64,000 nucleotides of DNA. Origin: Nitrospirota bacterium. GTDB taxonomy: Bacteria > Nitrospirota > UBA9217. The translations under genes and the position numbers were made by a program. Below are positions 1 through 60,067 of this stretch, piece after piece. The notes below the pieces were generated by a model that was not told the DNA's origin, did not search any database, and worked only from the letters and a program-made list of their open reading frames with translations. Location of the stretch: assembly GCA_963818475.1 (NCBI GenBank), contig CAWFSF010000006.1:1664001-1728000 (forward strand). Reading direction: 5' to 3'. Every line of letters starts with the position of its first letter. The first letter of the stretch is position 1.

Positions 1-130
1 CCATCAACGCGTGACAACTGGCGGAGACACAGGTTTCAGTCTGTGCATCAGCTCCTTTTGAAACAGCGATGATCAACGCAAAAGACCACAAAGTGAGAAA
101 AAATATACTTTTTTTATCTCGCTTAACCAT
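1..130 (-). CDS. N-terminus of a secreted c-type cytochrome (partial, runs off window)
   Basis: Translated by hand from the ATG at 130: MVKRDKKSIFFLTLWSFALIIAVSKGADAQTETCVSASCHALM. It has a signal peptide followed by a CX4CH heme motif, and a GGGAG RBS upstream. Confidence 0.7.
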   Translation of the reverse strand, partial: MVKRDKKSIFFLTLWSFALIIAVSKGADAQTETCVSASCHALM

Positions 131-2160: not shown

Positions 2161-2378
2161 ATCCTTCCCGCTTTCCTAAAAGGTCGATCGCCGATTGCTT
2201 GTTCAAACGCCCGAGGGAAATTCTCTCAATGACGACCATGAGAACGACCACATCATACACATAATGATGAACAAATGCAAGATTCAGCTTTACAAATGTT
2301 CACTCAATATGTTATTTTGCAAAGTACTGTTCTATTTTTACCGATGCAAAAAACTAAAAATAGGGGAATAAAAAAAAC

Positions 2379-3807
2379 ATGCTCCGAAAAACCTGTTCAA
2401 TCCTGTTTAACGTGTTTTTTATCTCTTTGTCTTTCATCATTTTCGCACAGACCTCGTTTGCAGAGGTAAATGATGACTATGCTCTCAAGATTTCCCTCGA
2501 GAACCAGCTGGAGAAAAAGCTCAAGCAGGTCATCGTGGAGATCACCGGTACGGACAGAGTGGTCATCTTCGTGAACGCCGAACTGTTCTCCGCCCGGGGC
2601 GAGAGAGGCAAAATGCTCGAGAAGAAGAAGACGAACGCGCTGGTGCTTCCCGGAGTCCCGGAAAAAAAGGAGATCGGTTCCGGCCAGTCCGAGATGGTGA
2701 TCGGCGCCGGGAGCAGCAAGTATACGGTCAACAAGATCATCCTTTCCATCTGGATCGACAAGAGCGTGCCCGGGTCCATCGTCGACCTCATCCAGGATAT
2801 CGCCAAGAACGTGATCGGCTTCAATCAGAACCGGGGCGACCAGATCAACGTCAAGAAGGTCGACTTCGAGTCAAAGGGCTTTTTCCGGAGCGCTCTTTGC
2901 GCTGCCGAACTTCTTCTGGCTGATCCTGACGCTGGTCGGCGGCTTCATGCTGGTAACGGTCGGCATGTTCTTCATGGATCCGCTTAAAAAAATCGTGCCG
3001 GCGCTAAAGAACATCGACTGGGGCCTGATCCGCGGAACCGGAGGTTCACCGAGCGGCCGAGCGAACCGATGACATACGAGCGAGAGGTCCTGTCCGGACG
3101 GCCGGCAATCCTAGACAAGGAACCTGCGCCGCTGGCGGGGGCTAAGGATGAAGCCGTTCCCTTCTCCTTCATCCGGGAACGGGACATCCCGTGCCTCGCC
3201 TTCCTGCTGAAGGACAAGACCGCGCAGGACATCGCCATCGTCATCAACTACCTCGACCCGGCCATCGGCATGCGGCTCCTCGAGCTGTTCCCGAAGGACA
3301 AGCAGGTTGAGGTCGCGCTCATCCTCGGCCAGGAAGAGATCAACATGGAAAAGGTGCATGCCCTCGAAGAGATGGTCAAGAGCAGGCTGACCTATGTCGT
3401 CGGCGGCGAGAACAAGCTGATCACCCTGCTCGACATGACCAACGAGGATGTTCGCGACAAGATCGTCAAGACACTGGAGACCAGGGACGCCCAGACCGCG
3501 ACGCGCCTCAAGTCAGAGGATCAAGAGCCTGGAATCGATCATTCGGGAACTGCCTGCTCCCGGCATTCAGACCCTGTACCGGAACATCGATGCCACGCTG
3601 TTCGCCCAGATCCTGAAGGCGTCACCGGAAGACATCCAGCAGAAGGTCATCTCTTCGCTCAGCGCCGGCGCCGCCGAACGGCTCAAGCAGGAAATGGAGC
3701 TGAGCCGACCTCTCTCCGGCGTGCGCCTCCGGAGGGAAAAACAGAACCTGATGGTCCTGGTGCGGCGGCTGATCAGCGAAGGTCTTGTGGAGGTTGAAAA
3801 CAACTAA
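2379..3807 (+). CDS. FliF-ring-domain / TM / FliG middle+C-terminal fusion protein (three apparent frameshifts at ~2889, ~3060, ~3513)
   Basis: Signal peptide; FliF C-terminal ring-building motif (LENQLEKKLKQVIVEITG..V.VNAEL, LPGVP, IAKNVIGFNQNRGDQINVKKVDF). TM helix FFWLILTLVGGFMLVTVGMFF lies in the +1 frame from 2890. FliG-M: PFSFIRERD..IAIVINYLDP..GG. FliG-C: LSAGAAERLKQEME..LVRRLISEG. Confidence 0.8.
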
Positions 3808-3808
3808 C

Positions 3809-4595
3809 ATGGAAAAAATGGATAAAATGACCATAATCGGGCTCGTCGCCATCCTGCTGACGATCCTGTATGTACTGGCCGTAGGCAATATCCTGCACAT
3901 GCTCTTCAACCCGCTGGCGCTGATCATCGTGTACGGCGGTACCTTCAGCGCGACCCTGATCGCCTATCCCTGGGCCGTGATCAAGGAGATCGTCCCGTCG
4001 CTGCGGGTCATGCTGTTCCCCAGCAAACATAGCGATCAAGGACATGGAGGACATGATCGCGACGCTTTCGCTCGCTGGCCGAAAAGGCCCGGCGGGACGG
4101 CGTTGAGAGCCTGGCCGGCGAGCTGCCGAAGATCAACGACAAGTTCCTGATCCATGGCATCCAGATGCTCGTTGACGGGCTTGAACACGATGTCATCAAG
4201 GACAACCTCGACCGCGAGATTTTCTATACGCGCCACAACCAGCAGAAGGTCTCGGGCGCCTTCCGGACCATGGCCACGGTCGCTCCCATCTTCGGACTGC
4301 TCGGCACGCTCATGGGCATCGTGGACATGCTGCGGAACCTGTCCAACCCGGCCAGCATGGGCGCCGCCATGTCCAATGCGGTCACGGCGACCTTTTACGG
4401 CATCTTTTCCGCGAACGTGTTCATCCCGATCGCGACCAAACTCTACGGACCACAGCGAGCGCGACATCATCAACAAAGAAATGATCGCCGAAGGCATCAT
4501 GGCGATCCAGCAGGGCGATGTTCCCCTCATCCTGAGGAAAAAGCTGACCGCCTTCATCATGGCCCATATGCAGGCAGAGATCGGATACCGCGTGA
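3809..4595 (+). CDS. motA: MotA/PomA-family stator A subunit (frameshifted)
   Basis: Reconstructed over several frames: MDKMTIIG..NPLALIIVYGGTFSATLIAYP; LAEKARRDGVESL..DKFLIHGIQMLVDG; APIFGLLGTLMGIV.ML.NL..P...G.AMS.A.TATFYGIF.AN.FIPIA.KL; EMIAEGIMAIQQGD.P..LR.KL. The 3' end is inferred from a GTGA overlap at 4592-4595. Confidence 0.85.
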
Positions 4596-5303
4596 ACGTA
4601 CATCGTCGACAGAACAGGCTGCCGAGCATGATCGAACAAAGAAAAGAAATCGGCAATATCTGGCTGATCATCTTCTCCGATATCACCACGAACCTGATGC
4701 TCTTCTTTCTCATGCTCTTCGCCATGACGCGCATGACGGCATCGGACAAGCAGATGGTGGTCGCCGGCATGGAGAGCACGGTCGTGAATCAGTCCGCCCG
4801 CGAACAGGCGGAGCTGGAGCGCCAGGCCAAGATGCAGCGCGAAGAAGAGGCGATCAAGCGGCTCCAGCTGGCGGTCGCCGACGGAACGCTTGCGGGAAAA
4901 GCGACGATCAGCGGTGACGGACAAGGCCGTCAATATCGCGCTCAATCCCGAGATCGTTCTTTTCCATCGGCAGCGCCAAACTCAATCCCGGCACGGTCAA
5001 TGTCCTGGAAAGCCTGGTCGGGCCTGATCCAGATGTTCCCCAACGACATCATCATCGAAGGCCATACCGATCACGATACCGGTGCGCGGAGGGGCCTATC
5101 GTTCCAACTGGGAGCTGTCCATTGCGCGGGCCGTCGGGGTCGTCAACTTCTTCACTGCCGGCGGCATCGATCCCCGAAGCAGCTGATCGCCGCCGGCTAC
5201 GGCGAGTTTCATCCTGCCTATCCGAACGATTCGGAAGTCAACCGGGCCAGGAACCGGCGCATCGAGATCACCCTCGTCCGCCAGGCAGAGGAGCACGCAG
5301 TGA
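4592..5303 (+). CDS. motB: MotB-family stator B subunit, copy 1 (frameshifted)
   Basis: TM WLIIFSDITTNLMLFFLMLFAM retains the conserved Asp. OmpA-like peptidoglycan-binding domain: IIIEGHTD, SNWELS.ARA, AAGYGEFHP..PND....RARNRRIEI. The end is inferred at a TGATG junction; the in-frame stop as written is 5338. Confidence 0.8.
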
Positions 5304-5970
5304 TGTCGGTCCTGAAAAAATTCGTACAGTATACGTGAAGAGCACGATGGAGGAGACCGAGCTCTGGATGCTGCCCTACAGCACCCTGATGCTGACGCTG
5401 GTCATCCTTTTCATCATGTTCTACGCCTTTTCCCTGTCCGGTTCCGTGGAATACGAGACCGCGCTCTCCGACCTGGCGTCCACCAACCCGAACGACCCCC
5501 GGGTCAAGCAGATGAAGCAGGAGATCGCGCTGGCGAAGAATATCCGCGATTTCATCGAAAAGAACAAGTTGACGGACAAGATCCAGCTGGTCATGACTCC
5601 GCACTCCATCAAGATCAAGATGGAAAGCTTCGCGCTCTTCGACAGCGGGAGCGCCGACGTGAAGAAGGACATCCTGTTCTTCCTCGACTACCTGAACGAG
5701 CAGTTGAAGCCCATGAACAACATGGTCATCGCCGAAGGGCATACCGATAACGTCCCGATCCACAACCAGCAGTTCGACTCGAACTGGGAGCTGTCATCGG
5801 CCCGTGCCTTCAGCGTCATTTATTTCTTCCTCAATAAAGGCATTGCGCCTGAACGCCTCGTCGCCCATGGCTTCGGCGAGTTCAGGCCTGCCTATACGAA
5901 CGAGACGGAGACCGACCGGGCGAAGAACCGGCGTATCGAGATCACCGTGGTCAGAGGAGCTACAAAGTGA
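5303..5970 (+). CDS. motB: MotB-family stator B subunit, copy 2 (conserved Asp replaced by Thr)
   Basis: GAGGAG RBS and ATG at 5303, with one indel in the A6 run at ~5318. TM WMLPYSTLMLTLVILFIMFYAFS. OmpA-like domain LFDSGSA, AEGHTDNVPI, SNWELSSARA, GFGEFRP, RAKNRRIEI. Confidence 0.85.
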
Positions 5971-7266
5971 AAAAAATACTTACTCTTGTCATCGGTGCCA
6001 TGCTCTGCATCGCAACCGGTGCCGGGGCCATAACGCCGAAGCAGGTGGAGCGGATCGAGCAGCTGAAGAAGGAGGTCGTCTCGCTCTTTCGGGAGGGCAA
6101 GTTCGAGCAGGCGGCGCCGCTCCTGAACGAGGTCCTGGCCATCGATCCTTTTGACAAGACGGCTGCCCGGTACCTTGCCCTGGCCAAGCAGCAGGCCATG
6201 GAGCCGTACTGCAAGGATGCCGCCGACGCGTTCCAGAATGAGGACTACGCCAAGGCGATCGAGATGTGGGATAAGCTGCTCAAGATGAATCCCGAAGACC
6301 GCCGTCTTCGACAGCCTGATCGATACGACGAAGAACCTGATCACCGACAAGACAACGGCCAAAATGTACCAGCACGCCGAAAAGTTCATCCAGGACGACG
6401 ACTACAAGTCCGCAGTCAACGAACTGGAAAAGATCCTGGCGGTCAGGCCCTACGACCGGCAGGCCAGCAGCCTCCTCAACACTGCCAAGAGCAATGTCGT
6501 CGATGTCCGGACCAAAAAACACTACGATCAGGCCGACGCCTACCTCAAAGAAAAACAATACGACCGCGCCATCGAAGAATGGAAAAAGATCCTCGACATC
6601 GACGATTCCCAGGAAGCCGCCTCACGATACATCGCATCGGCGGTCCGCGAAAAGATGGGCAGCCTCTATGTCGAGGCGAAGCAGGCCTATGAGCGAGGCG
6701 ACTACATAACCTCGCGCGATTCTTACAACAAGATCATTGCGGACAACCCGACAGACCTGGATGTCAAGACGATGATCGCGCGCCTCGACGACGTCATCAA
6801 GGTGTCGCTCAAGATCGACGAGAAAGGCCCGGCCGGCGACATGATGCGCAAGGCAATGACACAGTTCATTGCCGCCGACGGCAACCGCAAAGCATCCATG
6901 GCTGCCGCCTGGTACGCCTTCCAGCTGAACCCGGCACCGCTCACCACCGCGGTCAAAGGATTTCTGGAACTCAAGTACGCTTCTATTTTGACGACCATGG
7001 AAGCGCCGGTCGGCGACATGAACATTATAGACCAGTACCTCTTTACCGCGTTGAACCACATTTATGAAGGCCGGTACGACCTCGCGATCCAGAAGTGCAC
7101 CATCGTCATTGAGCTGCAGCCCAAGAACATTCTGGCGTGGAAGAGGCTCGGATCGGGCTACTATGCGATCGGCAAGAAGGACAAGGCGAAAGAAACCTGG
7201 GAGAAGGCGCTGAAGATGGCGCCTGACGATCCTGAACTGAAGCAGTTCATTCGTCAGGCAAAATAA
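5967..7266 (+). CDS. periplasmic tetratricopeptide-repeat protein (frameshift ~6310)
   Basis: GTGA overlap with motB2; signal peptide MKKILTLVIGAMLCIATGAGA; many TPR motifs (YAKAIEMWDKLLKMNP, YDRAIEEWKKILDIDD, AWKRLGSGYYAIG..KAKETWEKALKMAPDD). Confidence 0.85.
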
Positions 7267-7326
7267 TACAAATAATGCAGACGGAACGCTGATCGTCAGC
7301 CGTTCTGTTCACACGGGACTGCCCGC

Positions 7327-8718
7327 TTAAATAAGCCCGAATCGTTTCATACGACGCCTGAAGGCATCCCGGGGCATTTTCAGCAGCTGGGCAGCTTTGG
7401 TCTGGTTGCCGTTCGCCATGTCAAGCGATTTTCTGACCAGCGCATGCTCAACATCCTCGATCGACAGACCCGACTCGGGAATGACAAAGCCATCCAGGGA
7501 AACAGGCGCGCCCGAGACGCCTCCTGCGGGCGCACCGGTATCAGAAACGCTGTCCAGGAGCTCCTGCGGCAGATGTTCCGGCTGGATCTCGTCCCCGACT
7601 TCCAGGATCATTGCACGCTCGATGACATTCTTCAGTTCTCTCACGTTTCCCGGCCAGGAGTATGCAAGGAGTATCTCTTCTGCGTCCCTGTTGATCCGAT
7701 GAATGTTTTTATGGCACTCCTGGCTGAAATGGTTGATAAAGTGATGTGCGAGCAATAGAACATCACGGCCCCGGTTCCTGAGAGGAGGCAGGGTAATGGG
7801 CACCACCTGCAGGCGATAGTACAGATCCTTCCTGAACTTTCCTTCGCTCATTGCTTTCGATAGTTCCTGGTTCGTTGCCGATACGAGCCGGACATCGACA
7901 GTGATATCCTTTATTCCGCCAACCCGCTTAAAGGTCTTCTCTTCGAGCATTCTGAGCAGCTTTGCCTGCATGCTCATATCCATGTCGCCGATTTCGTCCA
8001 GGAATACGGTGCCGCTGTCGGCGAGCTCGAACAGGCCTTTCTTGGCGGCCTTTGCGTCGGTAAAGGCGCCCTTCTCATGCCCCATAAGCTCGGTCTCGAG
8101 CAGCGTGACCGGCAAAGCGGCGCAGTTGATCGCCATGAACGGCTTGTCCGCCCGCGCACTGCCGTAGTGGATGGCCTTCGCGACAAGTTCCTTGCCCGTG
8201 CCGCTCTCGCCCTGGATCAGCACCGTGGTGGCATCACTTCGGGCAATTTTCCTGATCAGGTTCTTGATCTTGACCATATCATCAGATTCACCCATGATCG
8301 CATCGACCTGTGAGCTGGTTTCCTTCCGGAGTTGTTTGACCTGTGTGCGCAGAGAGCCTGCCTCGAGCGCTTTTTTAATCACAAAGGTTATTTCTTCGAG
8401 ATTGAACGGTTTGCTGATATAGTCATAGGCGCCGAGCTTCAGAGCTTTGACAGCGGTTTCGACCATACCGTAGGCCGTGATCATTATGACCATCAGCCCC
8501 CGCTCCTGCACATGCAGTTTTTCGAGCAGCTCAAGTCCGGTCATTTCCGGAAGCCGGTTATCGAGCAGAATGAGGTCAGGGGTGTCTTCCGTAAGCAGTT
8601 CCAATCCTTTTTCCGCGGACTCTGCCGTGACGACATCGTACCCTTCCTTGACCAGATGCTGTTCCAGCGTCCAGCGAATCAACTTTTCATCATCAATGAC
8701 CAGAATCTTCTGTACCAT
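7327..8718 (-). CDS. sigma54-dependent NtrC/AtoC-family response regulator
   Basis: Receiver domain (VIDDE, LLDNRLP, KP), AAA+ GESGTGKE and GAFTDA motifs, WPGNVREL, Fis-type HTH. Confidence 0.95.
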   Translation of the reverse strand: MVQKILVIDDEKLIRWTLEQHLVKEGYDVVTAESAEKGLELLTEDTPDLILLDNRLPEMTGLELLEKLHVQERGLMVIMITAYGMVETAVKALKLGAYDYISKPFNLEEITFVIKKALEAGSLRTQVKQLRKETSSQVDAIMGESDDMVKIKNLIRKIARSDATTVLIQGESGTGKELVAKAIHYGSARADKPFMAINCAALPVTLLETELMGHEKGAFTDAKAAKKGLFELADSGTVFLDEIGDMDMSMQAKLLRMLEEKTFKRVGGIKDITVDVRLVSATNQELSKAMSEGKFRKDLYYRLQVVPITLPPLRNRGRDVLLLAHHFINHFSQECHKNIHRINRDAEEILLAYSWPGNVRELKNVIERAMILEVGDEIQPEHLPQELLDSVSDTGAPAGGVSGAPVSLDGFVIPESGLSIEDVEHALVRKSLDMANGNQTKAAQLLKMPRDAFRRRMKRFGLI

Positions 8719-8736
8719 CTATCCTGCTCCTCGCTG

Positions 8737-10227
8737 TTATCCCTTTTGCTCTGACGTCCCCTGCTTCGGATAGGGGAACGTGATCGCGAAGGTCGCCCCA
8801 TTGCCCGCAGAGCTCATGACGCTGATTTCGCCGTTATGCTGTTCAACGATCCGCTGGGTGATCGACAGCCCCAGCCCCGTCCCTTGCTGGCGTGTGGTAA
8901 AGAAGGGGTTAAAGATCCTGTTCAGATTGTCCGTGGAAATGCCTTTACCGCTGTCGGCAAGCATGATCGATACGGATCCGGGAGAGTCCGCCGAAGGGCT
9001 CGCCGATCTGGTCTCTACCGTGAATTTGCCGCCGTTCGGCATCGACTGGATCGCATTCAGCGCAATATTGATCAGCGCCTGCTGTATCAGGTCGGGATCA
9101 AGCGTCAGCCAGGGAAGCCCTGCCGCCAATCTGCGCTCGGTCGTGATGCCTTGTTTGGCGAACTGCGGAGCCAGGAAATCGAGCAGTTTCCCGATCATTT
9201 CGTTGATATCGACCAGCGACATCTTTGGCTCCGGCGGACGGGCGAAGGAGAGCAGATTGCGAACAGCCTTGTCCATCCGTTCCACCTGGGACAAGACCTC
9301 CTCCAGGACGGCCCGCTTCGGTTCACCGACCGGTATCTCTTTTTTCAGGACCTGGATGACGCCTGCAATGCCTGCCAGCGGATTTTTAATCTCATGGGCG
9401 ATGCCTGCCGCCATCTCTCCGATGGAGGCCAGCCGGTCCGCCCGCTTCATTTGTTCAAAATGGTACTGCTCAACCCGCCTGCGGGCGCGCTCAAGCTTCG
9501 ACAGAAGCGAATTAAAGGCTTCGCCGAGACTGCCAATATCGTCGGAGCTTTTCACCTCGACGCGGGCCTCGAGACCGCGTTCGGCACGCTCCATGGTGGC
9601 AATAAGCTCCTGGATGGGGTTGGTAACGAAACGCGTGAGGAACATGGAAAGCGAGATGGCGAGCACTGCCGTGACCCCGAAGGCCCAGAGGAACATCGTT
9701 TTGCTGAGGTCTTCCACCTTTTCCTGGGTCTGCGCCATGGAGACATCAACCGTTAGGATGCCATTCAGCTTGATGATAGAACCGTGGCAGCGATAACAGC
9801 GCTCGTCGTTGTCGATCGGGAACAACACGGAGAAGACGCCCTCGTCCCGACGCTTAATCGGTTTCTTGAACCGTCCCTCAAGGAACCACTTTTGGGTCGA
9901 TGGGTCGACGGACCTCCCAATCATCCCGCGCTTCGAGGATTTAAGGACAACGCCGTTGGGGCTGAAGATCTTCACTTCCTGAATATTATGGTACCCGCCC
10001 ACCGCCTCGATAATATGCTGCACTTCATTGCTCTTGCCGTTCAGCATGGCGTTGGACAGGCTGCGTTCGATGGTATTGGCGATCACCAGCACATTATCTT
10101 CCAAAGCGCCTTCCATCTGCGCCCGCTGGTAGCCGATATTGATCCAGGTCCCGGCACCGATGGTCACGGCGAGGATCGCGGAGACCGAGATGATGATCTT
10201 GCTCTTGAGGCTGGAGATGATCCTCAC
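8737..10227 (-). CDS. HAMP sensor histidine kinase with periplasmic heme-c motif
   Basis: Two TM helices; CYRCH in the periplasmic domain; HAMP; AHEIKNPL H-box; NAIQS, DSGKGI, FNPFFTT, GTGLGL boxes. Confidence 0.92.
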   Translation of the reverse strand: MRIISSLKSKIIISVSAILAVTIGAGTWINIGYQRAQMEGALEDNVLVIANTIERSLSNAMLNGKSNEVQHIIEAVGGYHNIQEVKIFSPNGVVLKSSKRGMIGRSVDPSTQKWFLEGRFKKPIKRRDEGVFSVLFPIDNDERCYRCHGSIIKLNGILTVDVSMAQTQEKVEDLSKTMFLWAFGVTAVLAISLSMFLTRFVTNPIQELIATMERAERGLEARVEVKSSDDIGSLGEAFNSLLSKLERARRRVEQYHFEQMKRADRLASIGEMAAGIAHEIKNPLAGIAGVIQVLKKEIPVGEPKRAVLEEVLSQVERMDKAVRNLLSFARPPEPKMSLVDINEMIGKLLDFLAPQFAKQGITTERRLAAGLPWLTLDPDLIQQALINIALNAIQSMPNGGKFTVETRSASPSADSPGSVSIMLADSGKGISTDNLNRIFNPFFTTRQQGTGLGLSITQRIVEQHNGEISVMSSAGNGATFAITFPYPKQGTSEQKG

Positions 10228-11195
10228 CCGGCATCCACCTTTCCGATGATCTCCCGGAGGTCTCCGATCTTCTGCTCCCGCATGAAGCCCTCGATGCCGT
10301 TCAGCACGTCAAGCGTGGCGCGCGGGTTGACGAAATTCGCCGTCCCCACCGCCACAGCCGATGCTCCGGCCAACATGAACTCGATGGCGTCCTCGCCTGT
10401 GACGATCCCGCCCATGCCGATGATCGGCAGGGACACGGACCGCGCCACCTGCCATACCATGCGCACGGCAATTGGCCTGATCGCGGGACCGGAAAGGCCG
10501 CCCGTGCAGTTGGCGAGCCGCGGTTTTTTACAGCGAACATCGATGGCCATGCCGAGCAGGGTATTGATCAGGGACAGCCCGTCGCAGCCTGCATCGGCCG
10601 CCGCCCTGGCGAAGGCGGTCACGTCGGTCACGTTCGGCGACAATTTGGCGATGAGCGGCAATCGCGTTGCCTTGCGAACGGCCGAGAGCAGGTCAAAGGT
10701 GGCCCGGAGGTCGGTGCCGAAGGCCATCCCGCCTGCTTTTACGTTCGGGCAGGAGATATTCACCTCGATGCCGGAGATCCCGCTGGCGCCATCGAGACGC
10801 TCGGCCACGCCGACGTACTCCTCGAGGCTGTAGCCGAACATGTTCACGATCACCGCCGTATCGTACTTTCTCAGATAGGGCATTTTCTCGTTGAGGAATA
10901 CATCGACCCCCGGGTTCTCGAGCCCGATGGCGTTCAGCATTCCCGACGGCGTTTCCCAGATGCGCGGCGGCGGGTTTCCTTTGATCGGTTTCAGGGAAAT
11001 ACCCTTGACGATCACGCCGCCCAGCTGGTTCAGATTTACGAACTCGGCAAACTCCTCGCCGTAGCCGAAGGTCCCGGATGCGGTAAGCACGGGATTTTTC
11101 AGCTTGATCCCGGCGAAGGTGACGGAGAGGTCAGGGCTTCCGATTACGGATTTCTGATTGCGGATTGCGGATTTTTTGTCCAGCGTCGTGCTCAC
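10224..11195 (-). CDS. pyrD: dihydroorotate dehydrogenase B, catalytic subunit
   Basis: KNPVLTASGTFGYG, MLNAIGLENPG, NISCPNV, KLSPNVTD, GGLSGPAI. Confidence 0.95.
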   Translation of the reverse strand: MSTTLDKKSAIRNQKSVIGSPDLSVTFAGIKLKNPVLTASGTFGYGEEFAEFVNLNQLGGVIVKGISLKPIKGNPPPRIWETPSGMLNAIGLENPGVDVFLNEKMPYLRKYDTAVIVNMFGYSLEEYVGVAERLDGASGISGIEVNISCPNVKAGGMAFGTDLRATFDLLSAVRKATRLPLIAKLSPNVTDVTAFARAAADAGCDGLSLINTLLGMAIDVRCKKPRLANCTGGLSGPAIRPIAVRMVWQVARSVSLPIIGMGGIVTGEDAIEFMLAGASAVAVGTANFVNPRATLDVLNGIEGFMREQKIGDLREIIGKVDAG

Positions 11196-11207
11196 CTTTC
11201 CACCTTC

Positions 11208-12026
11208 CTACGTTCTCAACTTCAGAAGCACCTGTTCGCTCCAGTCGATCTCCCGCGAATCGAAAACGGGTCCCTCTTTGCATGCCCGCTTGTACCCGCC
11301 TGCCTTCATCGGGATCGAGCATCCCATGCACGCGCCAAGCCCGCAGGCCATGCGTTCTTCCATGGAGACGTGGCAAGGGATCGTATGTTCGGCAGCTATC
11401 CTGCTCACGGCGGCGAGCATGGCATGGGGTCCGCAGGCATAGAGGACAAGATGCGCTTTCTGCTCCATTTTCTTCAGGAAGGCGTTCAGAATATCGGTGG
11501 ACGTGCCCTGCACGCCGGCGCTGCCGTCATCGGTCGCAATATGGACGCGATCCGTGGCTTCTTTGAACGAGCGCACGATGTTCGCAGGAGGAAGGCATTC
11601 TTTGTTTCGTGCTCCAAGAAAAAGGTGGGCGAGCGAACCGGCACGCTGAGCCAGAAAATGCAGCGGCGGGAAACCGCTGCCGCCGGCAACCAGTACGGGT
11701 ATTGTTTTTTTATCCGGCAGGGGGAAGCCTTTTCCGAGCGGGCCGAGCAGACTCAAGGTTTGACCGGTTTTCGCGCCCGTCAGCATCGTGGTGCCTTTGC
11801 CTACAACGCGGTACACGATCTCGATCGATGACCGGAACATGACGGAGGATATGCCGAAAGGACGGGCGAGAAGCGGGTCCAGGGTATCGGATACCCGGAG
11901 CATCACAAACTGGCCGGGGAGGGCCGTTCGCGCCGCTTCAGGAGCTTTGAGAACGAGGCGGTAGTACTCTCGGCCAACAGGCTTGTTCGAGACAATGAGC
12001 GCCTTGTGAAGCCTATTCGATGGCAA
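11208..12026 (-). CDS. pyrK: dihydroorotate dehydrogenase electron-transfer subunit
   Basis: PGQFVML, RPFGI, GPLGKGF, CGPHAML, EERMACGLGACMGC 2Fe-2S motif, CKEGPVF. TTG start at 12026 is inferred. Confidence 0.93.
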   Translation of the reverse strand: MPSNRLHKALIVSNKPVGREYYRLVLKAPEAARTALPGQFVMLRVSDTLDPLLARPFGISSVMFRSSIEIVYRVVGKGTTMLTGAKTGQTLSLLGPLGKGFPLPDKKTIPVLVAGGSGFPPLHFLAQRAGSLAHLFLGARNKECLPPANIVRSFKEATDRVHIATDDGSAGVQGTSTDILNAFLKKMEQKAHLVLYACGPHAMLAAVSRIAAEHTIPCHVSMEERMACGLGACMGCSIPMKAGGYKRACKEGPVFDSREIDWSEQVLLKLRT

Positions 12027-12491
12027 TCTCGATCTCCTGGATCTCATATTCCACGGTCTTCACCGGCGTCTTGATCGTCACGACATCGCCCACCTTATGG
12101 CTGATAAGCGCCTTGCCCACGGGAGACTGAATGGAGATCTTGCCCAGTTTCAGGTCAGCTTCTTCCTGGCCCACGAGCGTGTATTTCTTGATGCTGCCGG
12201 ACTCCGTATCAGCAAGCGTCACGGTAGCGCCGAAAACCACTTTTTCGTTCGTCAGCTTCGACACGTCGATGATCTGGGCGTGGGCGAGCTTCTGCTCCAG
12301 TTCGCGTTTTTTGGCGTCCAAATGCCCCTGGCGCTCCTTGGCTGCATGGTACTCGGCGTTTTCCGAAAGGTCTCCATGGGCCCGCGCTTCCTCGATGTCC
12401 TTGATGTTCTTGCCCCGCTCCACCTTGACAATGCGGTCCAGTTCCTGCTTGAGCTTATCGTAGCCCGTCTGGGTCATCGGGATTTTCTGTG

Positions 12492-12495
<4 letters not shown>
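12013..12495 (-). CDS. greA: transcription elongation factor GreA
   Basis: [29 protein letters not shown]; sits in its usual position after carB. Confidence 0.96.
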
Positions 12496-15786
<3,291 letters not shown>

Positions 15787-15814
15787 GTGCACTTACCCCT
15801 TCTCAATAATTCAA

Positions 15815-15923
15815 AAATCCTAAATCCGAAATTCTAAACAATCTCGAAAACTTAAAACTGCAAATGTTTCAAACACTCGGATTTCGAGCTTGTTTAGGAT
15901 TTCGATATTCGAGTTTAGAATTT
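15815..15923. repeat. inverted heptamer-repeat element
   Basis: Left arm AAATCCTAAATCCGAAATTCTAAACAATCTCGAAA; right arm TTTCGAGCTTGTTTAGGATTTCGATATTCGAGTTTAGAATTT. Confidence 0.7.
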
Positions 15924-15926
15924 GCC

Positions 15927-16826
15927 TCAATCCAGTTCCTGCACCCATCCGTTCTCCAAACCATACGATTTCCATGATCCGGCAGGCGTCTTCGTACTCA
16001 TCTGTCGTGGTCCTTCGAGAAAGTTCTTTGAACTCAGCTCGCCTTGTATGCCGGAAAGTACTGGGACATGAGGCTGATATACACATCCTTCGATATCTCT
16101 TCAGCCAGGAACTTCATGACGCCCTCGGTTCCCGAAAGCCCGCCGGGCAGCACCAGGTGGCGGATAATGAGCCCGCGCTTCGCTATGCCATGCTCATCGA
16201 GCTGCAAGGTTGCCGACCTGCTGGTACATTTCTCTTACCGCGGCCCGGTTGACCTCGACATAATGCGGCGCAATCGAATAGAGCATCGCAACGCGATCGT
16301 CTGAGTAACGCATGTCCGGGAGGTAGATATCGACGATGCCGTCCAGCAGTCGGAGCGCCTCCACTGAGTCGTAGCCGCTCGTGTTGTACACCAGCGGCAG
16401 CGTGAAGCCGCGTTCCCTGGCGATCGCCCATGCCTTGAGTATCTGGGGCATGAAATGCGTCGGCGTCACCAGGTTGAGATTATGGCAGCCCTGCTCCTGC
16501 AGCCAGAGCATCTGGCAGGCAAGCTCTGCCGGCGTCTTTTCAACACCGTTCCCCATCTGGCTGATGGGGTAATTCTGGCAGTAGACGCACTTCATGTTGC
16601 AGTTGGCCAGAAAGATCGTTCCCGATCCCCTGGTTCCCGACAGCGGCGGTTCTTCGCCATGATGAGCACTGGCGCTCGCAACGACCGGATTCAGACCGGA
16701 CCGGCAAAAGCCTAGTTTATCGTTCTTGAGCCGGTTCACCCCGCATTCGCGGGGACAGACACGGCAGGCTTCGAGGAGCCCGTAGGCAGCCTCGATGCGA
16801 TGTTCTAGTTCGATCTGAGAAACCAT
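15927..16826 (-). CDS. PflX-like radical SAM protein (several frameshifts)
   Basis: CRVCPRECGVNR, HHGEEPPLSGTRGSGTIF, CNMKCVYC, GCHNLNLVTPTH, VYNTSGYD, DIYLPD. The C-terminal LENGWVQELD* is in another frame. Confidence 0.85.
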
Positions 16827-28804: not shown

Positions 28805-30381
28805 TCACAAATCATGCCCCGAATAGGACTGATTAAAGCTTTTGTTGCAGACCGGAAAGTCGGGAACAATGTTCCCGTGGATGCACTGCTCAAGCCCCAG
28901 CCAGTTCAGGCTCGACGGGTCCCTGACCATGCAGCGGTTGATCTCTCCGTTCATGTCCGGACTGCACCCAATAGAGGATCTCTCCGCGCCATCCTTCGAC
29001 CGCAGCGAAACCGGACCGGTCCGGCAAGGGAGAGCCAACGAGTTGCGCTGATCCTGCCTGTCGGGAAGCGACCCCAGCAATTCGCGGATGATCCTGATGG
29101 ACTCGCGCACCTCTTCCACCCTGATCCAGGCCCGTGCATGAACATCGCCGGAGATCAGCACCGGCACATTCACGCTGATCCGGTCATAGGGAGGAAACGG
29201 ATGATGGATGCGGCAGTCAAGGTTCAGACCGCTTGCCCGCGCTACGATCCCGACCACGCCGAGGTCGCGCGCCCGCGCCGGTTTGAGCACGCCCGTGTCC
29301 CGCACCCGGTCTTCCAGGGATGAATTCTCATCGTAGATCACGACGAGCCGTTCGAAATCTTTTTCCAGCCGGTCCAGTTCTTCAAGGATAGCCGCGATAC
29401 CGGAGTCATCGATATCAGTGGTTACGCCGCCCGGCACGATCCGGTCCATCATGAACCGGTGGCCGAAGAGCTTGAGGTTGGTGCGGAGCAGGTGTTCCTT
29501 CAGCCGGTGAAACTGGTACAACAGGATCGCAAAAGCGACATCATTGCAGATAGCGCCCAGGTCGCCGAGATGGTTCGCGATGCGTTCCCGTTCAAGGAAC
29601 AGCGCCCGGAGCCACATGGCCCGATCAGGAAGGATGGTGCCGGTCAACGCCTCCACTGCCCTGGGCATAGGCAAGGCTGTGGGCGACCGTGGTATCGCCC
29701 GACACGCGTGCAGCCAGACGCGCTGCCTCCTGCCAGGAGAGCGACTCGAACCGCTTTTCAATGCCCTTGTGCACGTAGCCCAGCTTTTCTTCAAGATTGA
29801 TGACGTCCTCGCCCATGGCCTGGAAACGGAAATGGCCGGGCTCGATGATGCCGGCATGGACCGGCCCGACCGGGATCTCGTAGATCCCCTCGCCCTCGGC
29901 CCGGATCCAGCGGTACTCTCCGGGGACCCGCGGCAGTTTTGTGGAGGCGTCGAAGGTCTTTCTGAGCGGCCAGGCATCGACCGGCCAGTCCTCGTGCTTG
30001 ATCCAGGGACGGTCGTCCGGATTGCCCACCGGCGTCAGCCCCATGAGGCTCTGGATCTGCCGTTCGAATCGATAGGCGGCAACGAACTTTTTGGTCAGGC
30101 TCGGGAAGGTCGGATCTTCGACAGGCACCTCTGTCTTCACCACGAGGTACTCCCGCTCTCTCCGGTAGCAGGCGTAAACAGCGAACCCTCTGCCCATCAG
30201 CGTCTCATCAGCAGCCCACTCCCCGGCGAGCAGGGCATATTCCTTCTTGAGCATCCGCGCTGTTTCAGCGAACCGTTTCCGCGGTACGACAAGGGACATC
30301 ACCGAAGAAGGAGCAATAGCAGTCATCCTCTTTCGCATCGTCACCGAGCGCAGCCATAACTAGGTTTTTCAATCTGATCAT
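28805..30381 (-). CDS. Ehr cluster A large subunit (HyfG/NuoCD-like, no NiFe cysteines; frameshifted)
   Basis: EIPVGPVHAGIIEPGHFRF, ARVSGDTTVAH, ERERIANHLGDLG, PDFPVCNKSFNQSYSGHDL. Confidence 0.88.
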
Positions 30382-30405
30382 AGTAATCTCGCGAACAAGA
30401 CATTC

Positions 30406-30552
30406 ACCACGGAGACACAGAGACACGGAGAAGGACAATGCCGTGTACTGACAATATATAAAGAGCAAAGCCTGATGTTGATGTCATATCAGAACCTTCG
30501 TTGATCCTGCAGGCGCCGTTATCTCTTCTCTGAGTCTCCGTGCCTCCGTGGT
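30406..30552. repeat. inverted 9-mer repeat pair
   Basis: ACCACGGAGACACAGAGACACGGAG ... CTCTGAGTCTCCGTGCCTCCGTGGT. Confidence 0.8.
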
Positions 30553-30566
30553 AAAAAATGTCTTCA

Positions 30567-32015
30567 TTATTTCAGCAGCACTACTGCCGTCTGGAACCAC
30601 CCGGCAAGGAACTTCGGCATGTACAGGCCGAGCACCAGAACAAGCGCCATGTGCAGCAGCACAGGAATATGAGCGACTTTCAGGTGTTTCTGATAAGGTG
30701 GTATTTCCCCGGATACCATGGGCTGGACCTTCCTGAACAGCGCCGCAAAGGTGACCGCGAGGCCCAGCAGCAGGAACGGGGCCAGGAAAGGCGCGTCCTT
30801 GATGGTCGCCGTCAGGATCAGGAACTCGCTCGTGAATACCCCAAAGGGCGGCATTCCCACGATCGCCATAACGCCCAGCGCCATGCCCCACCCGACAAGC
30901 GGATTGCCGCGGATGAGCCCTTTGATCTTGTCCATTTCCTGCGTCCGGTGCATCTGCGACGCATGGCCCACGGTAAAAAAGATGGCCGACTTGGTCAGGC
31001 TGTGGACCAGCATGTGAAGCAGCGCTCCGAAGGTGGCCACCGGGCCGCCCAGGCCAAAGGCGAAGGTGGCAATGCCCATGTGCTCGATCGATGAATAGGC
31101 GAACATGCGCTTGATGTCCTTTTGGCGCAGGATGGAGAAGGATGCGACCATGATCGAGAGCAGGCCGAATCCCATCATGATATTCCCGGAGTGGTGCGTC
31201 CCGGTTGATCCGTCCACCAGGACCTTGCAGCGGACCAGCGCATAGAGCGCGATGTTCAGCAGAAGGCCCGAGAGCACGGCCGAGATGGGAGTTGGTCCTT
31301 CGCTGTGGGCATCGGGAAGCCAGTTGTGGAGCGGAACGAGCCCGACTTTAGTGCCGTACCCGACCATGAGGAACACAAAAGCAAGAGACAATATGGTCGG
31401 TTCGAGCTGGCTGCTCACCTGTGCAAGGTTCGTCCAGTGGAGTGCGGCGCCGCCTGCGCCCAGTACCTTTTCCGCCGCAAAGTAGAGCAGCACGGTGCCG
31501 AACAGCGCAAGAGCGATCCCCACGCCGCAGAGGATGAAATATTTCCATGCTGCTTCGATCGATGCAGGAGTCCGGTAGAGCGATACGAGGAGGACCGTCG
31601 ACAGCGTGGCAAGCTCCATGGCGATCCAGAGGATGCCGACGTTGTTCGTCAGGAGGCAGAGCAGCATGGCAAAGATAAAGAGCTGATACATGGCGTGATA
31701 GAACCGCATCCTGCGGTGCCCCAATGTCCCGTGCTCGCGTTCACGCCGCATGTAGCGTCTGCTGAAGATGGCGGTGGTCATGGAAACAAATGCAGTAAGT
31801 ACGGACAGGTAGATGCTGAAAGCGTCGACAAAGAAGAAGTCGTTCCAGGCCAGCAACGGGCCCTGTTCGTAGACCTGGAACGCCAGCACAATGCCGGCCG
31901 CGCAGGTCGTTGCGGAGCCGAGGATGTTCACCTCGGGCGCATATTTCCGGTCGCCGATGATGGCCAGCATCAGCGAGGAGATGAGCGGGATGACTAAGAG
32001 AATCAGGAGATACAT
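30567..32015 (-). CDS. Ehr cluster A antiporter-like subunit (HyfF-like)
   Basis: WIAMELATL, EAAWKY, GYGTKVGLVPLHNWLPDAHSEGP, KRMFAYSSIEHMG. Confidence 0.92.
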   Translation of the reverse strand: MYLLILLVIPLISSLMLAIIGDRKYAPEVNILGSATTCAAGIVLAFQVYEQGPLLAWNDFFFVDAFSIYLSVLTAFVSMTTAIFSRRYMRREREHGTLGHRRMRFYHAMYQLFIFAMLLCLLTNNVGILWIAMELATLSTVLLVSLYRTPASIEAAWKYFILCGVGIALALFGTVLLYFAAEKVLGAGGAALHWTNLAQVSSQLEPTILSLAFVFLMVGYGTKVGLVPLHNWLPDAHSEGPTPISAVLSGLLLNIALYALVRCKVLVDGSTGTHHSGNIMMGFGLLSIMVASFSILRQKDIKRMFAYSSIEHMGIATFAFGLGGPVATFGALLHMLVHSLTKSAIFFTVGHASQMHRTQEMDKIKGLIRGNPLVGWGMALGVMAIVGMPPFGVFTSEFLILTATIKDAPFLAPFLLLGLAVTFAALFRKVQPMVSGEIPPYQKHLKVAHIPVLLHMALVLVLGLYMPKFLAGWFQTAVVLLK

Positions 32016-33891: not shown

Positions 33892-34839
33892 CTATTCCAG
33901 CATGAAATATGACATCATCCCCAGTGTTGCAAAAAGAAAAGCGCTCCCGAGAAATTCCGTTATGCGGAAGATCCGCATTTTCGCAAGCCCGGTCTCGATC
34001 AGCACCAGTCCCACTCCAACAAACCCCAGTTTAAGCAACAGGACCGCGAGCGCTGCGAAGACGGCGAACAGATCATCATTCAATGCGATCCCCCAGGGGA
34101 AGAATGACGCGATCCCGAGCACGACGAACAGATACAGTTTCATCATCCCCGCCCATTCGATAAGGGCCAGGTGCCTGCCGGAATATTCAAGGATCATGGC
34201 CTCGTGGATCATGGTGAGTTCCAGGTGCGTGGCCGGATTGTCAACCGGCACCCTCCCCGTTTCGGCAAGAGCAATAAGGATGAACGCCAAAAGCGCAAAC
34301 ACGAGCGACGGCCTGAGCATGGCATGCCCGCCCTGGGAAATGACCGCGGTCATCTGGGACAGGGAGGTGGACTTGCCCACCAGCGATACGGCGAACACAG
34401 CCATCAGCATGGCCGGCTCGGCGAGGGAAGCAATGGTCATCTCTCTGCTCGACCCCATGCCGCCGAAGGCGGTGCCGATGTCCATGCCGGCCAGTGCCGT
34501 AAAGAACCGGGCAATGGCAAAAAGCGCGACCAGCACGATAACATCGGCTATCGCCGAGAGCGGCAGGTCCGTCGACAAGGTGGGGATAATACTTCCTGCC
34601 ATGACCGAGACGCCGAACACGAGGTAGGGAGTGAATCGGAAGATCCATGATGCATTCTCAGCCAGCACGACATCCTTGGAGAAAAGCTTCCTGAGGTCCC
34701 GGTACGGCTGGAAAAGGCTCGGCGAGGTCCTGCCCTGGAACCAGCACTTCATCATCTTCACCCAGCCTGCGAACAGCGGGGCAGCGAATAGAAGAAGTGC
34801 GACCTGGGCAACCGCTATGAAAAATGGATGGATGTTCAA
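33892..34839 (-). CDS. Ehr cluster A HyfC/NuoH-like subunit
   Basis: QPYRDLRKLF.K, GGMGSSREM, AETGRVPVDNPATHLELTMIHEAMILEYSG. Confidence 0.92.
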   Translation of the reverse strand: MNIHPFFIAVAQVALLLFAAPLFAGWVKMMKCWFQGRTSPSLFQPYRDLRKLFSKDVVLAENASWIFRFTPYLVFGVSVMAGSIIPTLSTDLPLSAIADVIVLVALFAIARFFTALAGMDIGTAFGGMGSSREMTIASLAEPAMLMAVFAVSLVGKSTSLSQMTAVISQGGHAMLRPSLVFALLAFILIALAETGRVPVDNPATHLELTMIHEAMILEYSGRHLALIEWAGMMKLYLFVVLGIASFFPWGIALNDDLFAVFAALAVLLLKLGFVGVGLVLIETGLAKMRIFRITEFLGSAFLFATLGMMSYFMLE

Positions 34840-34887
34840 TCAAGATCTCCTGAACGAGTAAGAATGAATCGTAATAAATCTATGTCT

Positions 34888-34965
34888 ACCACGGAGACAC
34901 AGAGACACTGAGAACTGAATCACAAGAATTAATAGGTTTTCTCCGTGCCTCAGTGCCTCCGTGGT
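34888..34965. repeat. inverted 9-mer repeat pair
   Basis: ACCACGGAGACACAGAGACACTGAG ... CTCCGTGCCTCAGTGCCTCCGTGGT. Confidence 0.8.
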
Positions 34966-34986
34966 TAAATCAATGTTTATAGGTTT

Positions 34987-57957: not shown

Positions 57958-58027
57958 GTAGGGCGGGTAGAGCAAAGCGAAACCCGACAAATGCCATTGG
58001 GTTGCGCAGACGCTTAACCCAAACTAA
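57958..58027. repeat. GTAG-type REP doublet (REPIN-like)
   Basis: GTAGGGCGGGTAGAGCAAAGCGAAACCCGAC...TTGGGTTGCGCAGACGCTTAACCCAAACTA; reverse-complement near-copy of 32365-32433. Confidence 0.8.
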
Positions 58028-58242
58028 ATTTGAAAAAGCTAAACCCGTATTTGCATATTAGTTTTATTTGGCACATATTCCATTTATCGGACATTAGTCT
58101 TTTGCTCAAATCTCAATGATTTAACCAGGATGCGTCACTATATTTCTTAAATTCATTGACCACTTTTCGAATCCGTGCTACTGTATTTCGGTACCGATAA
58201 TACCTGGTTAGGCTGAAATTTGAAATTCTGAAAAGGCTGAGC

Positions 58243-58831
58243 ATGAAAGTAAAAGGCTGCCCATTTTGCGACGAAAATCTTATCTCAACGAAAGTAAAAT
58301 TTGATACTGGAAATGAAATACCGTGTAACAGATTGATTTACGAAAATGAGTCTTGTTATGCAGTATTAAAACCAGAGCAGCACTCTCATGGTGAGGCTCT
58401 GATTATTTTGAAAGTAACATGTCAGAGACATCACTGATAACATCCAGCCAGATCTATTATCAAAATTTATAATTACAACGCAAAGGATAGCTCAGGCGAT
58501 GAAGTGCTGCTTAATTAATGAGCATAACGAAAAGCCTGAAAAAATTTATACATCAACTTTATGCGATGGGATACAGCATTTGCACTTTCATTTAATACCG
58601 AGATATCCTTTTACTGAAACAGATCGTAATACATTTAGGAGAATATTCTTAAAGCGCGATGGAAAAGAAAAGGTCCAAAATGCTCTCGATATTAATGAGC
58701 TTGGGGGATATTGGTATGTCGCAGAAAGAGAAGCAAATCACAAGAATTCAGAGTATTGGCGACTTCCAAACAAAAATAAGGCAACAATATTGGAATGTTT
58801 AGCCAGTTGTATGCGTACAAAAATATGCTAA
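58243..58831 (+). CDS. HIT-family nucleotide hydrolase (frameshift ~58412), low GC
   Basis: CPFC, LIYENE, GEALII in ORF 58243; GIQHLHFHLIPR histidine triad in ORF 58499. Confidence 0.8.
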
Positions 58832-58911
58832 TACATTGTCTATCCATCGCGTGGACTCGGACGCGGGATAGATCGCCGCGCGCCGCTGTCCATATGGAAA
58901 GGGAAAATAGC

Positions 58912-59994: not shown

Positions 59995-59996
59995 AA

Positions 59997-60067
59997 TACT
60001 AACCAGCCGGTCCACAGCGTCGCGCCGGAAGCGGCGCGTGACCGGCGTGTTCACCTGCCCGTTAGAT
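59997..60067 (+). other. attC-like integron cassette recombination site
   Basis: TACTAAC just after the stop codon, then CAGCCGGTCCAC ... CGCGCC-GGAAGC-GGCGCG-TGACCGGC with one unpaired C, then GTT (60049) and GTTAGAT (60061). Confidence 0.55.

Follow-up and report, generated by a model that had tools for sequence, protein, structure and literature searches.

The 64,000-nucleotide stretch of a Nitrospirota genome analyzed here (contig CAWFSF010000006.1, positions 1,664,001 to 1,728,000; hereafter the window) encodes, at 2379 to 3807 on its + strand, a protein in which parts of the flagellar rotor components FliF and FliG are fused. The encoded order is a signal peptide, one domain resembling the third ring-building motif (RBM3) of FliF, one transmembrane (TM) helix, a linker, FliG_M and FliG_C. 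It is the first gene of a conserved operon that continues with motA, motB1, motB2 and a gene for a tetratricopeptide repeat (TPR) protein; we refer to this group as the cassette. We propose that the fusion protein works together with MotA and MotB as a non-flagellar, switchless, ion-driven rotor–stator module, a stripped-down flagellar-type rotor made of one protein, and put the probability of this reading at roughly 0.55. A first-pass annotation of the same DNA had described such a reduced rotor. Its interpretation is partly supported by the results below, and it had left unweighed the probable assembly errors in the gene, the operon with its own stator genes and the large size of the family.

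As assembled, the gene lies in four overlapping open pieces (2379–2987, 2947–3072, 3069–3797 and 3448–3807), which together amount to 474 codons interrupted by four 1-nucleotide (nt) insertions. Pfam recognizes its parts on separate pieces: YscJ_FliF_C on the first (E 6.6e-7, 30.3 bits, cut-off 23.8), matching profile positions 93–147 of 147 only, FliG_M on the third (E 2.3e-7, 31.4 bits, cut-off 25) and FliG_C on the fourth (E 4.4e-13, 49.9 bits, cut-off 23.3). That the pieces belong to one protein is supported by intact homologues. When 41 related genomes were searched in six frames, the FliG_M piece as query recovered the same protein in open frames of 474–527 amino acids (aa) in six genomes; with plausible starts these give proteins of 470–474 aa that align end to end with the four pieces. 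In a large protein collection, 79 of 82 homologues have 458–484 aa and the other three 270–316 aa. The homologues are thus single open reading frames (ORFs), not separate FliF-like and FliG-like genes, as the first-pass annotation had supposed in joining the frames. The path it chose (0/+1/0/+1, about 476 aa) has to be corrected: the frames run 0/+1/+2/0/+1 across four insertions, with a stretch of 16–17 nt in the third frame, and the product has 474 aa.

The window translation, read in three frames, shows ..AQTSFA/EVNDD.., the hydrophobic LFALPNFFWLILTLVGGFMLVTVGMFF, LLKDKTAQDIAIVINYL, YVVGGENKL and RIKSLESII. Residues 1–28 (2379–2462) have the layout of a signal peptide: the n-region is basic, the core hydrophobic, and positions −3/−1 hold small residues, with a predicted signal peptidase I site at SFA/EV. 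Its cleavage is plausible because all 17 proteins in the family alignment have a hydrophobic segment near the N terminus and small residues at −3/−1 precede the conserved EVNDD start in most of them. The only other hydrophobic segment, again in 17/17 members, lies at residues ~180–200. The periplasmic domain that follows the predicted signal peptide (2463–2873) is assigned from Pfam, AlphaFold2 models and structural matches. It has the order alpha-beta-[~40-residue loop]-beta-alpha-beta, with an invariant LPGVP motif in the loop and RGD after the second helix. The single TM helix (residues ~175–199; 2902–2976) is both the conserved hydrophobic segment and a helix in the model, and leads into a cytoplasmic juxtamembrane helix and a low-confidence linker (2977–3152) without a Pfam domain. 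This linker occupies the place where FliF-C and FliG-N otherwise join the two proteins. FliG_M (3153–3407), which ends with a Gly-Gly linker at 3402–3407, and the segment 3520–3804, in which the residues at the MFXF position precede FliG_C with its torque helix ..SAGAAERLKQEM.. at ~3661–3696, complete the protein.

Structural modeling agrees with this layout. In the AlphaFold2 model of the closest intact orthologue, whose mean predicted local distance difference test (pLDDT) score is 68, an N-terminal helix (residues 2–22) is followed by a helix (32–56), a strand (61–71), a low-confidence loop (73–113), a strand (115–127), a helix (132–146), a strand (155–161), the TM helix (175–199), a disordered linker (219–257, pLDDT <50) and the FliG_MC helices (266–465). 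With the whole model, Foldseek gives E-values of 6e-9 to 3e-7 for FliG MC chains and of 1e-4 to 1e-3 for FliF ring chains. The periplasmic domain modeled alone is a clean alpha-beta-beta-alpha-beta ring-building motif spanning 136 residues, including an insertion of ~40 residues. Compared by VIA-align with 48,161 solved chains, it matches Salmonella FliF RBM3 best (6scn, chain 230–438; Z 14.6, root-mean-square deviation 1.9 Å over 100 residues), with Vibrio FliF RBM3 chains at Z 14.1 and 12.5. EscJ, PrgK and SpoIIIAG trail at Z 8–9 (SpoIIIAG Z 8.2), and the next unrelated folds score ~Z 9. The single ring-building motif with a short beta1–beta2 insertion that the first-pass annotation had noticed is therefore borne out, and it is RBM3-like.

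In flagellar motors FliG-N binds the FliF tail, the EHPQ motif of FliG binds FliM, and RBM1/RBM2 of FliF house the export gate. FliG_N (PF14842) has no Pfam match on the window pieces and no entry for any of the 82 homologues; RBM1/RBM2 (PF01514) has no match on the fusion protein nor anywhere in the genome; and the FliG_N-binding C-terminal tail of FliF is replaced by the linker and FliG_MC. The RBM3/S-ring domain (PF08345) is present as the last third of the model only, with a beta-collar insertion much shorter than that of FliF. Full-protein families score accordingly low. The intact orthologue reaches 62.4 bits with NCBIfam fliG (TIGR00207; cut-off 226.7), over model positions 106–324 of 338 only, the window pieces 25.8 and 32 bits, and NCBIfam fliF (TIGR00206) gives 30.7 bits, far under the equivalog cut-off of 129.75. 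The family profile aligns with Thermotoga maritima FliG_MC (1lkv) at E 6.9e-30, pairing EHPQ with K-T-A-Q (3216–3227), MFVF, at the MFXF position, with I-K-S-L (3520–3531) and GG with GG. Among eight fusions from Nitrospirota and Elusimicrobia and three canonical FliGs of the same phylum, EHPQ occurs in 0/8 and 3/3, respectively, and the Gly-Gly linker is invariant in both sets. The first-pass annotation had located these domains and motifs correctly, and its claims that RBM1/RBM2, FliG-N and the FliM-binding EHPQ are missing, that MFXF reads IKSL and that GG is kept all hold.

Stator genes accompany the fusion gene. motA (3809–4582) starts at the stop of the fusion gene; it carries 1-nt insertions at ~4037, 4070 and 4444 and matches Pfam MotA_N and MotA_ExbB. 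Over its whole length, an intact MotA orthologue can be aligned with solved structures of flagellar MotA/PomA (E 1.6e-41 to 2.4e-22) and is recognized by NCBIfam as flagellar MotA at E 1.8e-54, compared with E 4e-4 for TolQ. motB1 (approximately 4625–5338, with several 1-nt insertions) encodes a plug, a TM helix that carries the channel Asp (..FSDITTNL..) and an OmpA-like peptidoglycan-binding domain (MotB_plug E 6.3e-9, plus OmpA, in Pfam); its product is only 61% identical to that of the related genome G005, where the neighboring proteins reach 90–93%. motB2 (5347–5970) is intact and encodes a paralogue with plug (E 5.3e-5) and OmpA-like domain (E 6.3e-16), in which Thr replaces the channel Asp (..PYSTLMLTL..). 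A flagellar-type stator combines a four-TM MotA that has a large cytoplasmic domain with a MotB that has plug, channel Asp and OmpA-like domain. These features are found in MotA, matched over its full length, and in MotB1; MotB2 lacks the Asp. All MotA and MotB scores lie under the NCBIfam equivalog cut-offs. The last cassette gene (5967–7266) encodes a periplasmic TPR protein of ~432 aa with a signal peptide and is split into two frames by a 1-nt insertion at ~6309. It belongs to no specific family in the PDB and NCBIfam searches, which gave generic TPR matches only (designed TPRs, BamD, PilW, MamA, YbgF), all below cut-off.

The arrangement is conserved. A pattern scan of species genomes, built on the 17-member alignment and reaching Nitrospirota and Elusimicrobiota only, returned 21 loci, 18 of them Nitrospirota-type records and three from Elusimicrobia. 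Among these loci, MotA directly follows the fusion gene wherever the DNA extends that far, and MotB1, MotB2 and TPR matches are found in 18 of the 21, two of these being Elusimicrobia loci with the TPR gene upstream. The TPR gene after motB2 is conserved in Nitrospirota. At one Elusimicrobia locus (L042) both MotB matches fall on one stretch.

From these parts a mechanism can be proposed. After cleavage of the signal peptide, the RBM3-like domains would assemble a periplasmic ring, as in the S-ring of FliF, each subunit being held in the inner membrane by its one helix. The covalently tethered FliG_MC domains would form a cytoplasmic torque ring under the membrane. Stators of the MotA5B2 type, anchored to peptidoglycan by their OmpA-like domains, would use ion flow to push the FliG_C torque helix; since the pair of a MotA Arg and a FliG acid is kept, the ring would turn. 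With neither EHPQ nor FliM and FliN, there would be no CheY-driven switch and rotation would be one-way. The likeliest parts to couple the ring to an output would be the periplasmic LPGVP loop, the operon TPR protein and a neighboring beta-propeller protein with RCC1 repeats and an Lcl_C domain. Ring formation, rotation, its single direction and any function of the lumen, such as the different cargo suggested by the first-pass annotation, are what we infer from the domains and their gene neighborhood.

Several points weigh against this proposal. We infer oligomerization, the ring, its rotation and MotA binding. The models are of moderate confidence only, with a mean pLDDT of 68 and values below 50 in the insertion loop and linker. 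No output part was identified. The window's copy as assembled is unable to yield the protein. The rotor–stator interface also differs from the flagellar one, since charged positions have changed on both sides. On the torque helix, at positions that we take to be R281, D288, D289 and R297 in E. coli numbering, all eight fusions lack the arginines at R281, where they have Gly (Arg in 3/3 canonical FliGs), and at R297 (Arg or Lys in 0/8); the D288 position is Glu or Gln, and D289 is Glu in 8/8, acidic (Glu or Asp) also in 3/3 canonical FliGs. On the MotA side, the R90 position is Arg or Lys in 7/7 proteins; at the E98 position, 5/5 Nitrospirota copies have Ala or Gln and 2/2 from Elusimicrobia have Glu. 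According to two publications, R90 of MotA pairs with D289 of FliG and E98 of MotA with R281 of FliG in flagella (PMC7564593; PMC12505986). Correlated loss of the E98–R281 pair on both partners was considered as a general rule and dropped, as the rotor has Gly in 8/8 fusions and the Elusimicrobia MotA keeps Glu in 2/2. Finally, the channel Asp of MotB2 is replaced by Thr in 6/6 Nitrospirota copies, so that a mixed B dimer might run unlike a flagellar stator; MotB1 and MotB2 may pair as a heterodimer that has only one Asp. One Elusimicrobia locus (L041) keeps Asp in both MotBs.

Such observations give some room to a different machine built from the same parts, which we regard as unlikely while taking it to be the most serious competitor. 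Here the fusion protein would be an energy-transducing anchor instead of a spinning ring. A monomer or small oligomer would dock via FliG_C on the cytoplasmic face of MotA and pass MotA's ion-driven motion through the TM helix to the periplasmic domain, the TPR protein and the beta-propeller, much as TonB and TolA are energized by ExbBD and TolQR. The RBM3 insertion that builds the beta-collar is cut to ~40 residues, and the model spans 136 residues compared with residues 230–438 of FliF, so that ring geometry may differ or be lost; the interface charges unlike those of flagellar motors, the Asp-less MotB paralogue and operon partners that are periplasmic and include no axial parts would fit as well. 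Against a transducer of this kind, the closest structural matches of the domain, by a clear margin over other folds, are RBM3 chains of FliF, which forms rings, and FliG_M, FliG_C and the GG linker are all kept. FliG_M and FliG_C polymerize head to tail in C-rings. Drive in Ton- and Tol-type systems comes from the periplasmic and membrane side, and to our knowledge none of the known transducers of these types is driven through a FliG-like cytoplasmic domain.

Another question is whether the cassette works in this particular organism. Aligned at the DNA level with two intact orthologues, the fusion gene is colinear and departs from them only by an additional base at each of four sites, ~2886, 3052, 3068 and 3516; once these columns are dropped it contains no internal stop. 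Relative to the same-genus assembly G003, the region 2379–7266 shows 16 single-base differences, every one an insertion in the window. The only other changes in this region are one deletion of 1 nt and two indels, of 8 nt and 2 nt, near motB1. The concentration of 16 single-base insertions in the 4.9 kb of the cassette is what a decaying pseudogene cluster would look like, with real frameshifts and a machine lost in this genome and working in relatives. The clean flanks would fit as well: the RCC1 gene aligns with the proteins of relatives in one frame, no single-base insertion occurs at 7333–14068, and the 6.7 kb past the cassette differ by one 1-nt and one 25-nt change only, with genes there aligning in one frame. 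We nevertheless hold decay to be improbable. The single-base differences are insertion-only, and no nonsense change remains after removal of the four extra columns. A similar patch of six single-base insertions affects respiratory nuo genes at 28954–30909, and G003, a long-read-like assembly of nine contigs, has its own extra-base patches, for example opposite window positions 34824–36991. The ratio of nonsynonymous to synonymous substitution rates (dN/dS) is 0.132 between the window and the G003 orthologue and 0.135 between two intact orthologues. Given insertion-only differences, patches that extend to nuo genes and a dN/dS of 0.13, the breaks are probably assembly errors, not decay, and the gene is probably intact in the organism. 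The pattern looks like the uneven consensus quality of long-read assemblies, which leads to fragmented gene calls in this genome. Our search for public sequencing runs covering window positions 2300–7300 found none of any type, RNA included, which counts against the proposed module as well. Insertion patches relative to the sister assembly are also seen at 14069–16204 and 34057–34576; together with the one at 28954–30909, they affect housekeeping genes (nuo, the carB region).

The genomic context places the proposed module outside the flagellum. The fusion gene is the sole FliG_C match in its genome (7 contigs, 91% complete, 6% contamination), and FliM, FliN, FlhA, flagellin and a full FliF were not found there; at this completeness and contamination, not found is not the same as absent, which limits the strength of our proposal. 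Among five carrier genomes searched, four (the source genome and three that are 96–100% complete) are without FlhA, flagellin, FliMN_C and YscJ_FliF, in line with the earlier suggestion that export gate and switch are missing. FlhA is missing in 14 of 17 Nitrospirota carriers, including 8 of 10 high-quality genomes, and present in three. The fifth, G021, the one flagellated carrier looked at in detail, has a full flagellar set on another contig, including its own canonical FliG (a 354-aa frame) and its own MotA, apart from the fusion cassette. Neither finding that would have refuted the first-pass reading was made, be it separate genes for the two halves or homologues that retain EHPQ and occur together with fliM. 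The idea that the protein is a FliG paralogue which an ordinary flagellum employs, with its normal basal body, as an extra or substitute rotor component can appeal to the three carriers with FlhA, to the complete set of G021 and to some sources that label the protein 'flagellar motor switch protein FliG', and is highly improbable in view of the carriers without flagellar genes, the loss of FliG_N and EHPQ, through which it would bind FliF and FliM, and the membrane ring domain and stator genes that the fusion brings along. A flagellar remnant was rejected together with it.

Comparison with known systems helps to define what is new. With the flagellar torque core (FliF, FliG and MotA5B2 or PomA5B2) the cassette shares an RBM3 fold like that of the S-ring, FliG_M, FliG_C and the GG linker, a full-length flagellar-type MotA, a MotB with plug, Asp and peptidoglycan-binding domain, and the Arg–acid pair (R90–D289). 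It differs in that one polypeptide replaces two and in that the fusion is without RBM1/RBM2, and therefore without a housing for the export gate, and without FliG_N, the FliF C-tail and EHPQ. Furthermore, most carriers are without genes for FliM/FliN, export apparatus, rod, hook and filament, the rotor no longer has its half of the second charge pair (R281 is Gly in 8/8), and the cassette adds an Asp-less second MotB, a TPR protein and an RCC1/Lcl_C partner.

The nearest published natural case that we found is the FliF–FliG protein of Chlamydiaceae. Its description (PMC4768692, Bergeron 2016) presents a protein of ~330 aa with RBM2 and one further RBM-like stretch, without a SpoIIIAG-like third domain and with the M region of FliG only, which is proposed to work with the injectisome; no MotAB partner is described there. 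The two proteins have in common that they are natural fusions, occur in non-flagellated bacteria and connect a truncated periplasmic part of FliF, via a TM helix, to a cytoplasmic domain resembling FliG. The protein studied here differs by its retained RBM3, FliG_M plus FliG_C, 474 aa, adjacent motAB and lack of PF01514. The other papers on FliF–FliG fusions in the literature searched deal with engineered constructs of Salmonella or Vibrio. These (for example PDB 8z4d/8z4g; PMC11481574; PMC10941966) show that a covalent link is compatible with ring assembly. For the 945-aa engineered chain 8z4d, the family profile gives E 3.1e-20, and the S-ring region of this chain matches the periplasmic domain at Z 12.5; such fusions are laboratory-made, join full-length FliF to full-length FliG and sit inside a complete flagellum. 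SpoIIIAG, which the first reading had also brought up, likewise has just one RBM, interrupted by an insertion, and builds a large homo-oligomeric ring. Its match is much weaker than that of FliF RBM3 (E 0.0051 with the family profile, NCBIfam E 0.058, Z 8.2), and it has neither a FliG part nor a stator. Non-flagellar 5:2 ion-driven motors, for which two sources list ExbBD-TonB, TolQR-TolA, GldLM, AglRQS and Zorya (PMC12505986; 10.1101/2024.03.12.584617), likewise employ a MotA/MotB-family unit for a job other than swimming. They fall in a generic non-flagellar A/B clade without a FliG-like rotor, whereas MotA here scores as flagellar. In the literature searched, as full text without supplements, we found no description of a FliF–FliG fusion encoded with MotAB outside flagella.

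The family is large. Among 301 sampled genomes of the phylum, about 17 carry the fusion at full length, and about 30 others only a canonical FliG of ~330 aa; within the window's family the fusion is present in 13 of 63 genomes. A profile search of 1.84 billion cluster representatives retrieved 207 proteins with E-values of 1e-30 or lower. Of the 150 matches listed, almost every one spans the whole profile, at lengths of ~430–735 aa. Long members (~630–735 aa) carry C-terminal cytoplasmic TPR repeats after FliG_C in 10 of the 16 scanned (P0128, P0141, P0150, P0174, P0185, P0191, P0193, P0198, P0199 and P0206), and several of them match the whole of YscJ_FliF_C (1–147), which implies a longer RBM3 insertion than in the Nitrospirota type. 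Three Elusimicrobia genomes (G301:C95, G303:C14 and G302:C228; L043–L045 and L046–L048) have two long FliG_C ORFs each, with frames of ~500–575 aa and 633–704 aa and none of canonical FliG size, which suggests from the sequences two paralogous fusion systems per genome. As leads only, look-alike clusters in the ESM Atlas are assigned to Elusimicrobiota, Cloacimonadota, Bdellovibrionota, Bacteroidota and Thermodesulfobacteriota. In a FliG_MC tree of 64 segments, computed by a quick search without an outgroup, the Nitrospirota-type fusions form a supported clade (16 rows, SH-aLRT 100). The only three canonical FliGs included, all from one phylum, form one clade attached among the long TPR-tailed fusions (98); the root is unplaced and the direction of change cannot be read from this tree.

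Around the cassette, a conserved neighbor in Nitrospirota is a divergently oriented gene (412–2160, − strand) for a secreted RCC1-repeat beta-propeller with an Lcl_C domain (WD40_RLD E 6.5e-84, RCC1 E 1.2e-72, Lcl_C E 1.3e-21). It lies upstream of the fusion gene at 14 loci and in the window, and is kept down to a fusion identity of 39–46% (L033, L038 and L039). Further RCC1-repeat paralogues (35–44% identity) are encoded elsewhere in the genome, at C6:820569–822386, C5:199324–201291 and C2:542759–544931. Past the cassette, and convergent with it, genes for a sigma-54 response regulator (7327–8718) and a HAMP histidine kinase (8737–10227) lie on the − strand (Pfam); these possible regulators are also found near the cassette in G005, G011 and G021. 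No sigma-54 −24/−12 match occurs in the 2161–2378 interval upstream of the fusion gene, where a weak sigma-70-like site (2289–2318) is all that was found, and the whole window contains 53 such −24/−12 matches compared with a shuffled mean of 65. The Elusimicrobia loci are arranged differently: the fusion gene is preceded by a gene for a TPR-LysM protein and by an ORF whose matches, UPF0164/TraF-like, are weak, and a Cache/PAS histidine kinase unrelated to the HAMP kinase follows the MotBs. Elsewhere in the window, a 2-kb stretch at 58001–60000 has a G+C content of 0.37, compared with 0.48–0.62 in the remainder.

At 13 of the 21 loci (L022–L036, e.g. L031:11943–15113) three multiheme cytochrome genes follow the TPR gene. 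One encodes a protein of ~488 aa with paired CXXCH motifs that is DmsE-like (TIGR03508, 275.9 bits, cut-off 192.2), the other two proteins of ~260 aa each of the c7 'nanowire_3heme' type. At L038 the three genes are rearranged and lie upstream of the RCC1 gene. In the window and in G003 the cytochromes are not downstream; a multiheme cytochrome of 32% identity lies just upstream of the RCC1 gene (window 1–130; C6:1662925–1664130).

These surroundings invite a bolder version of the proposal, which we offer as a long shot: an autonomous ion-driven rotary machine in non-flagellated bacteria, with a one-protein rotor ring and a flagellar-type stator, that would turn a periplasmic ring for a process of the cell envelope. 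In its boldest form the motor would help to position, renew or move an apparatus for electron transfer in the periplasm or outside the cell, an idea prompted by the cytochrome trio that follows the cassette in Nitrospirota at 13 of the 21 loci and is adjacent in rearranged form in one more. A second bold view, with which the small FliG_MC tree is compatible, would be that the family is related to a pre-flagellar rotor–stator core and is not a late derivative.

The flagellar motor is the textbook example of a rotary machine. Its rotor (FliF/FliG) has no description, in the literature searched, outside the flagellum together with a dedicated stator. If the proposed rotor–stator module is real, it would put rotary torque to a new use in the cell envelope and would offer a far simpler system to study how MotA turns FliG, since it has a single rotor protein and neither switch nor export gate. 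In the MotB paralogue without Asp and in the changed charge pairs, nature provides experiments on how the stator works. For the organism of this window it matters, too, that the gene is probably intact and its breaks probably assembly errors. For the family as a whole, the module, if confirmed, would add a new data point on the origin or re-use of the flagellar motor core.

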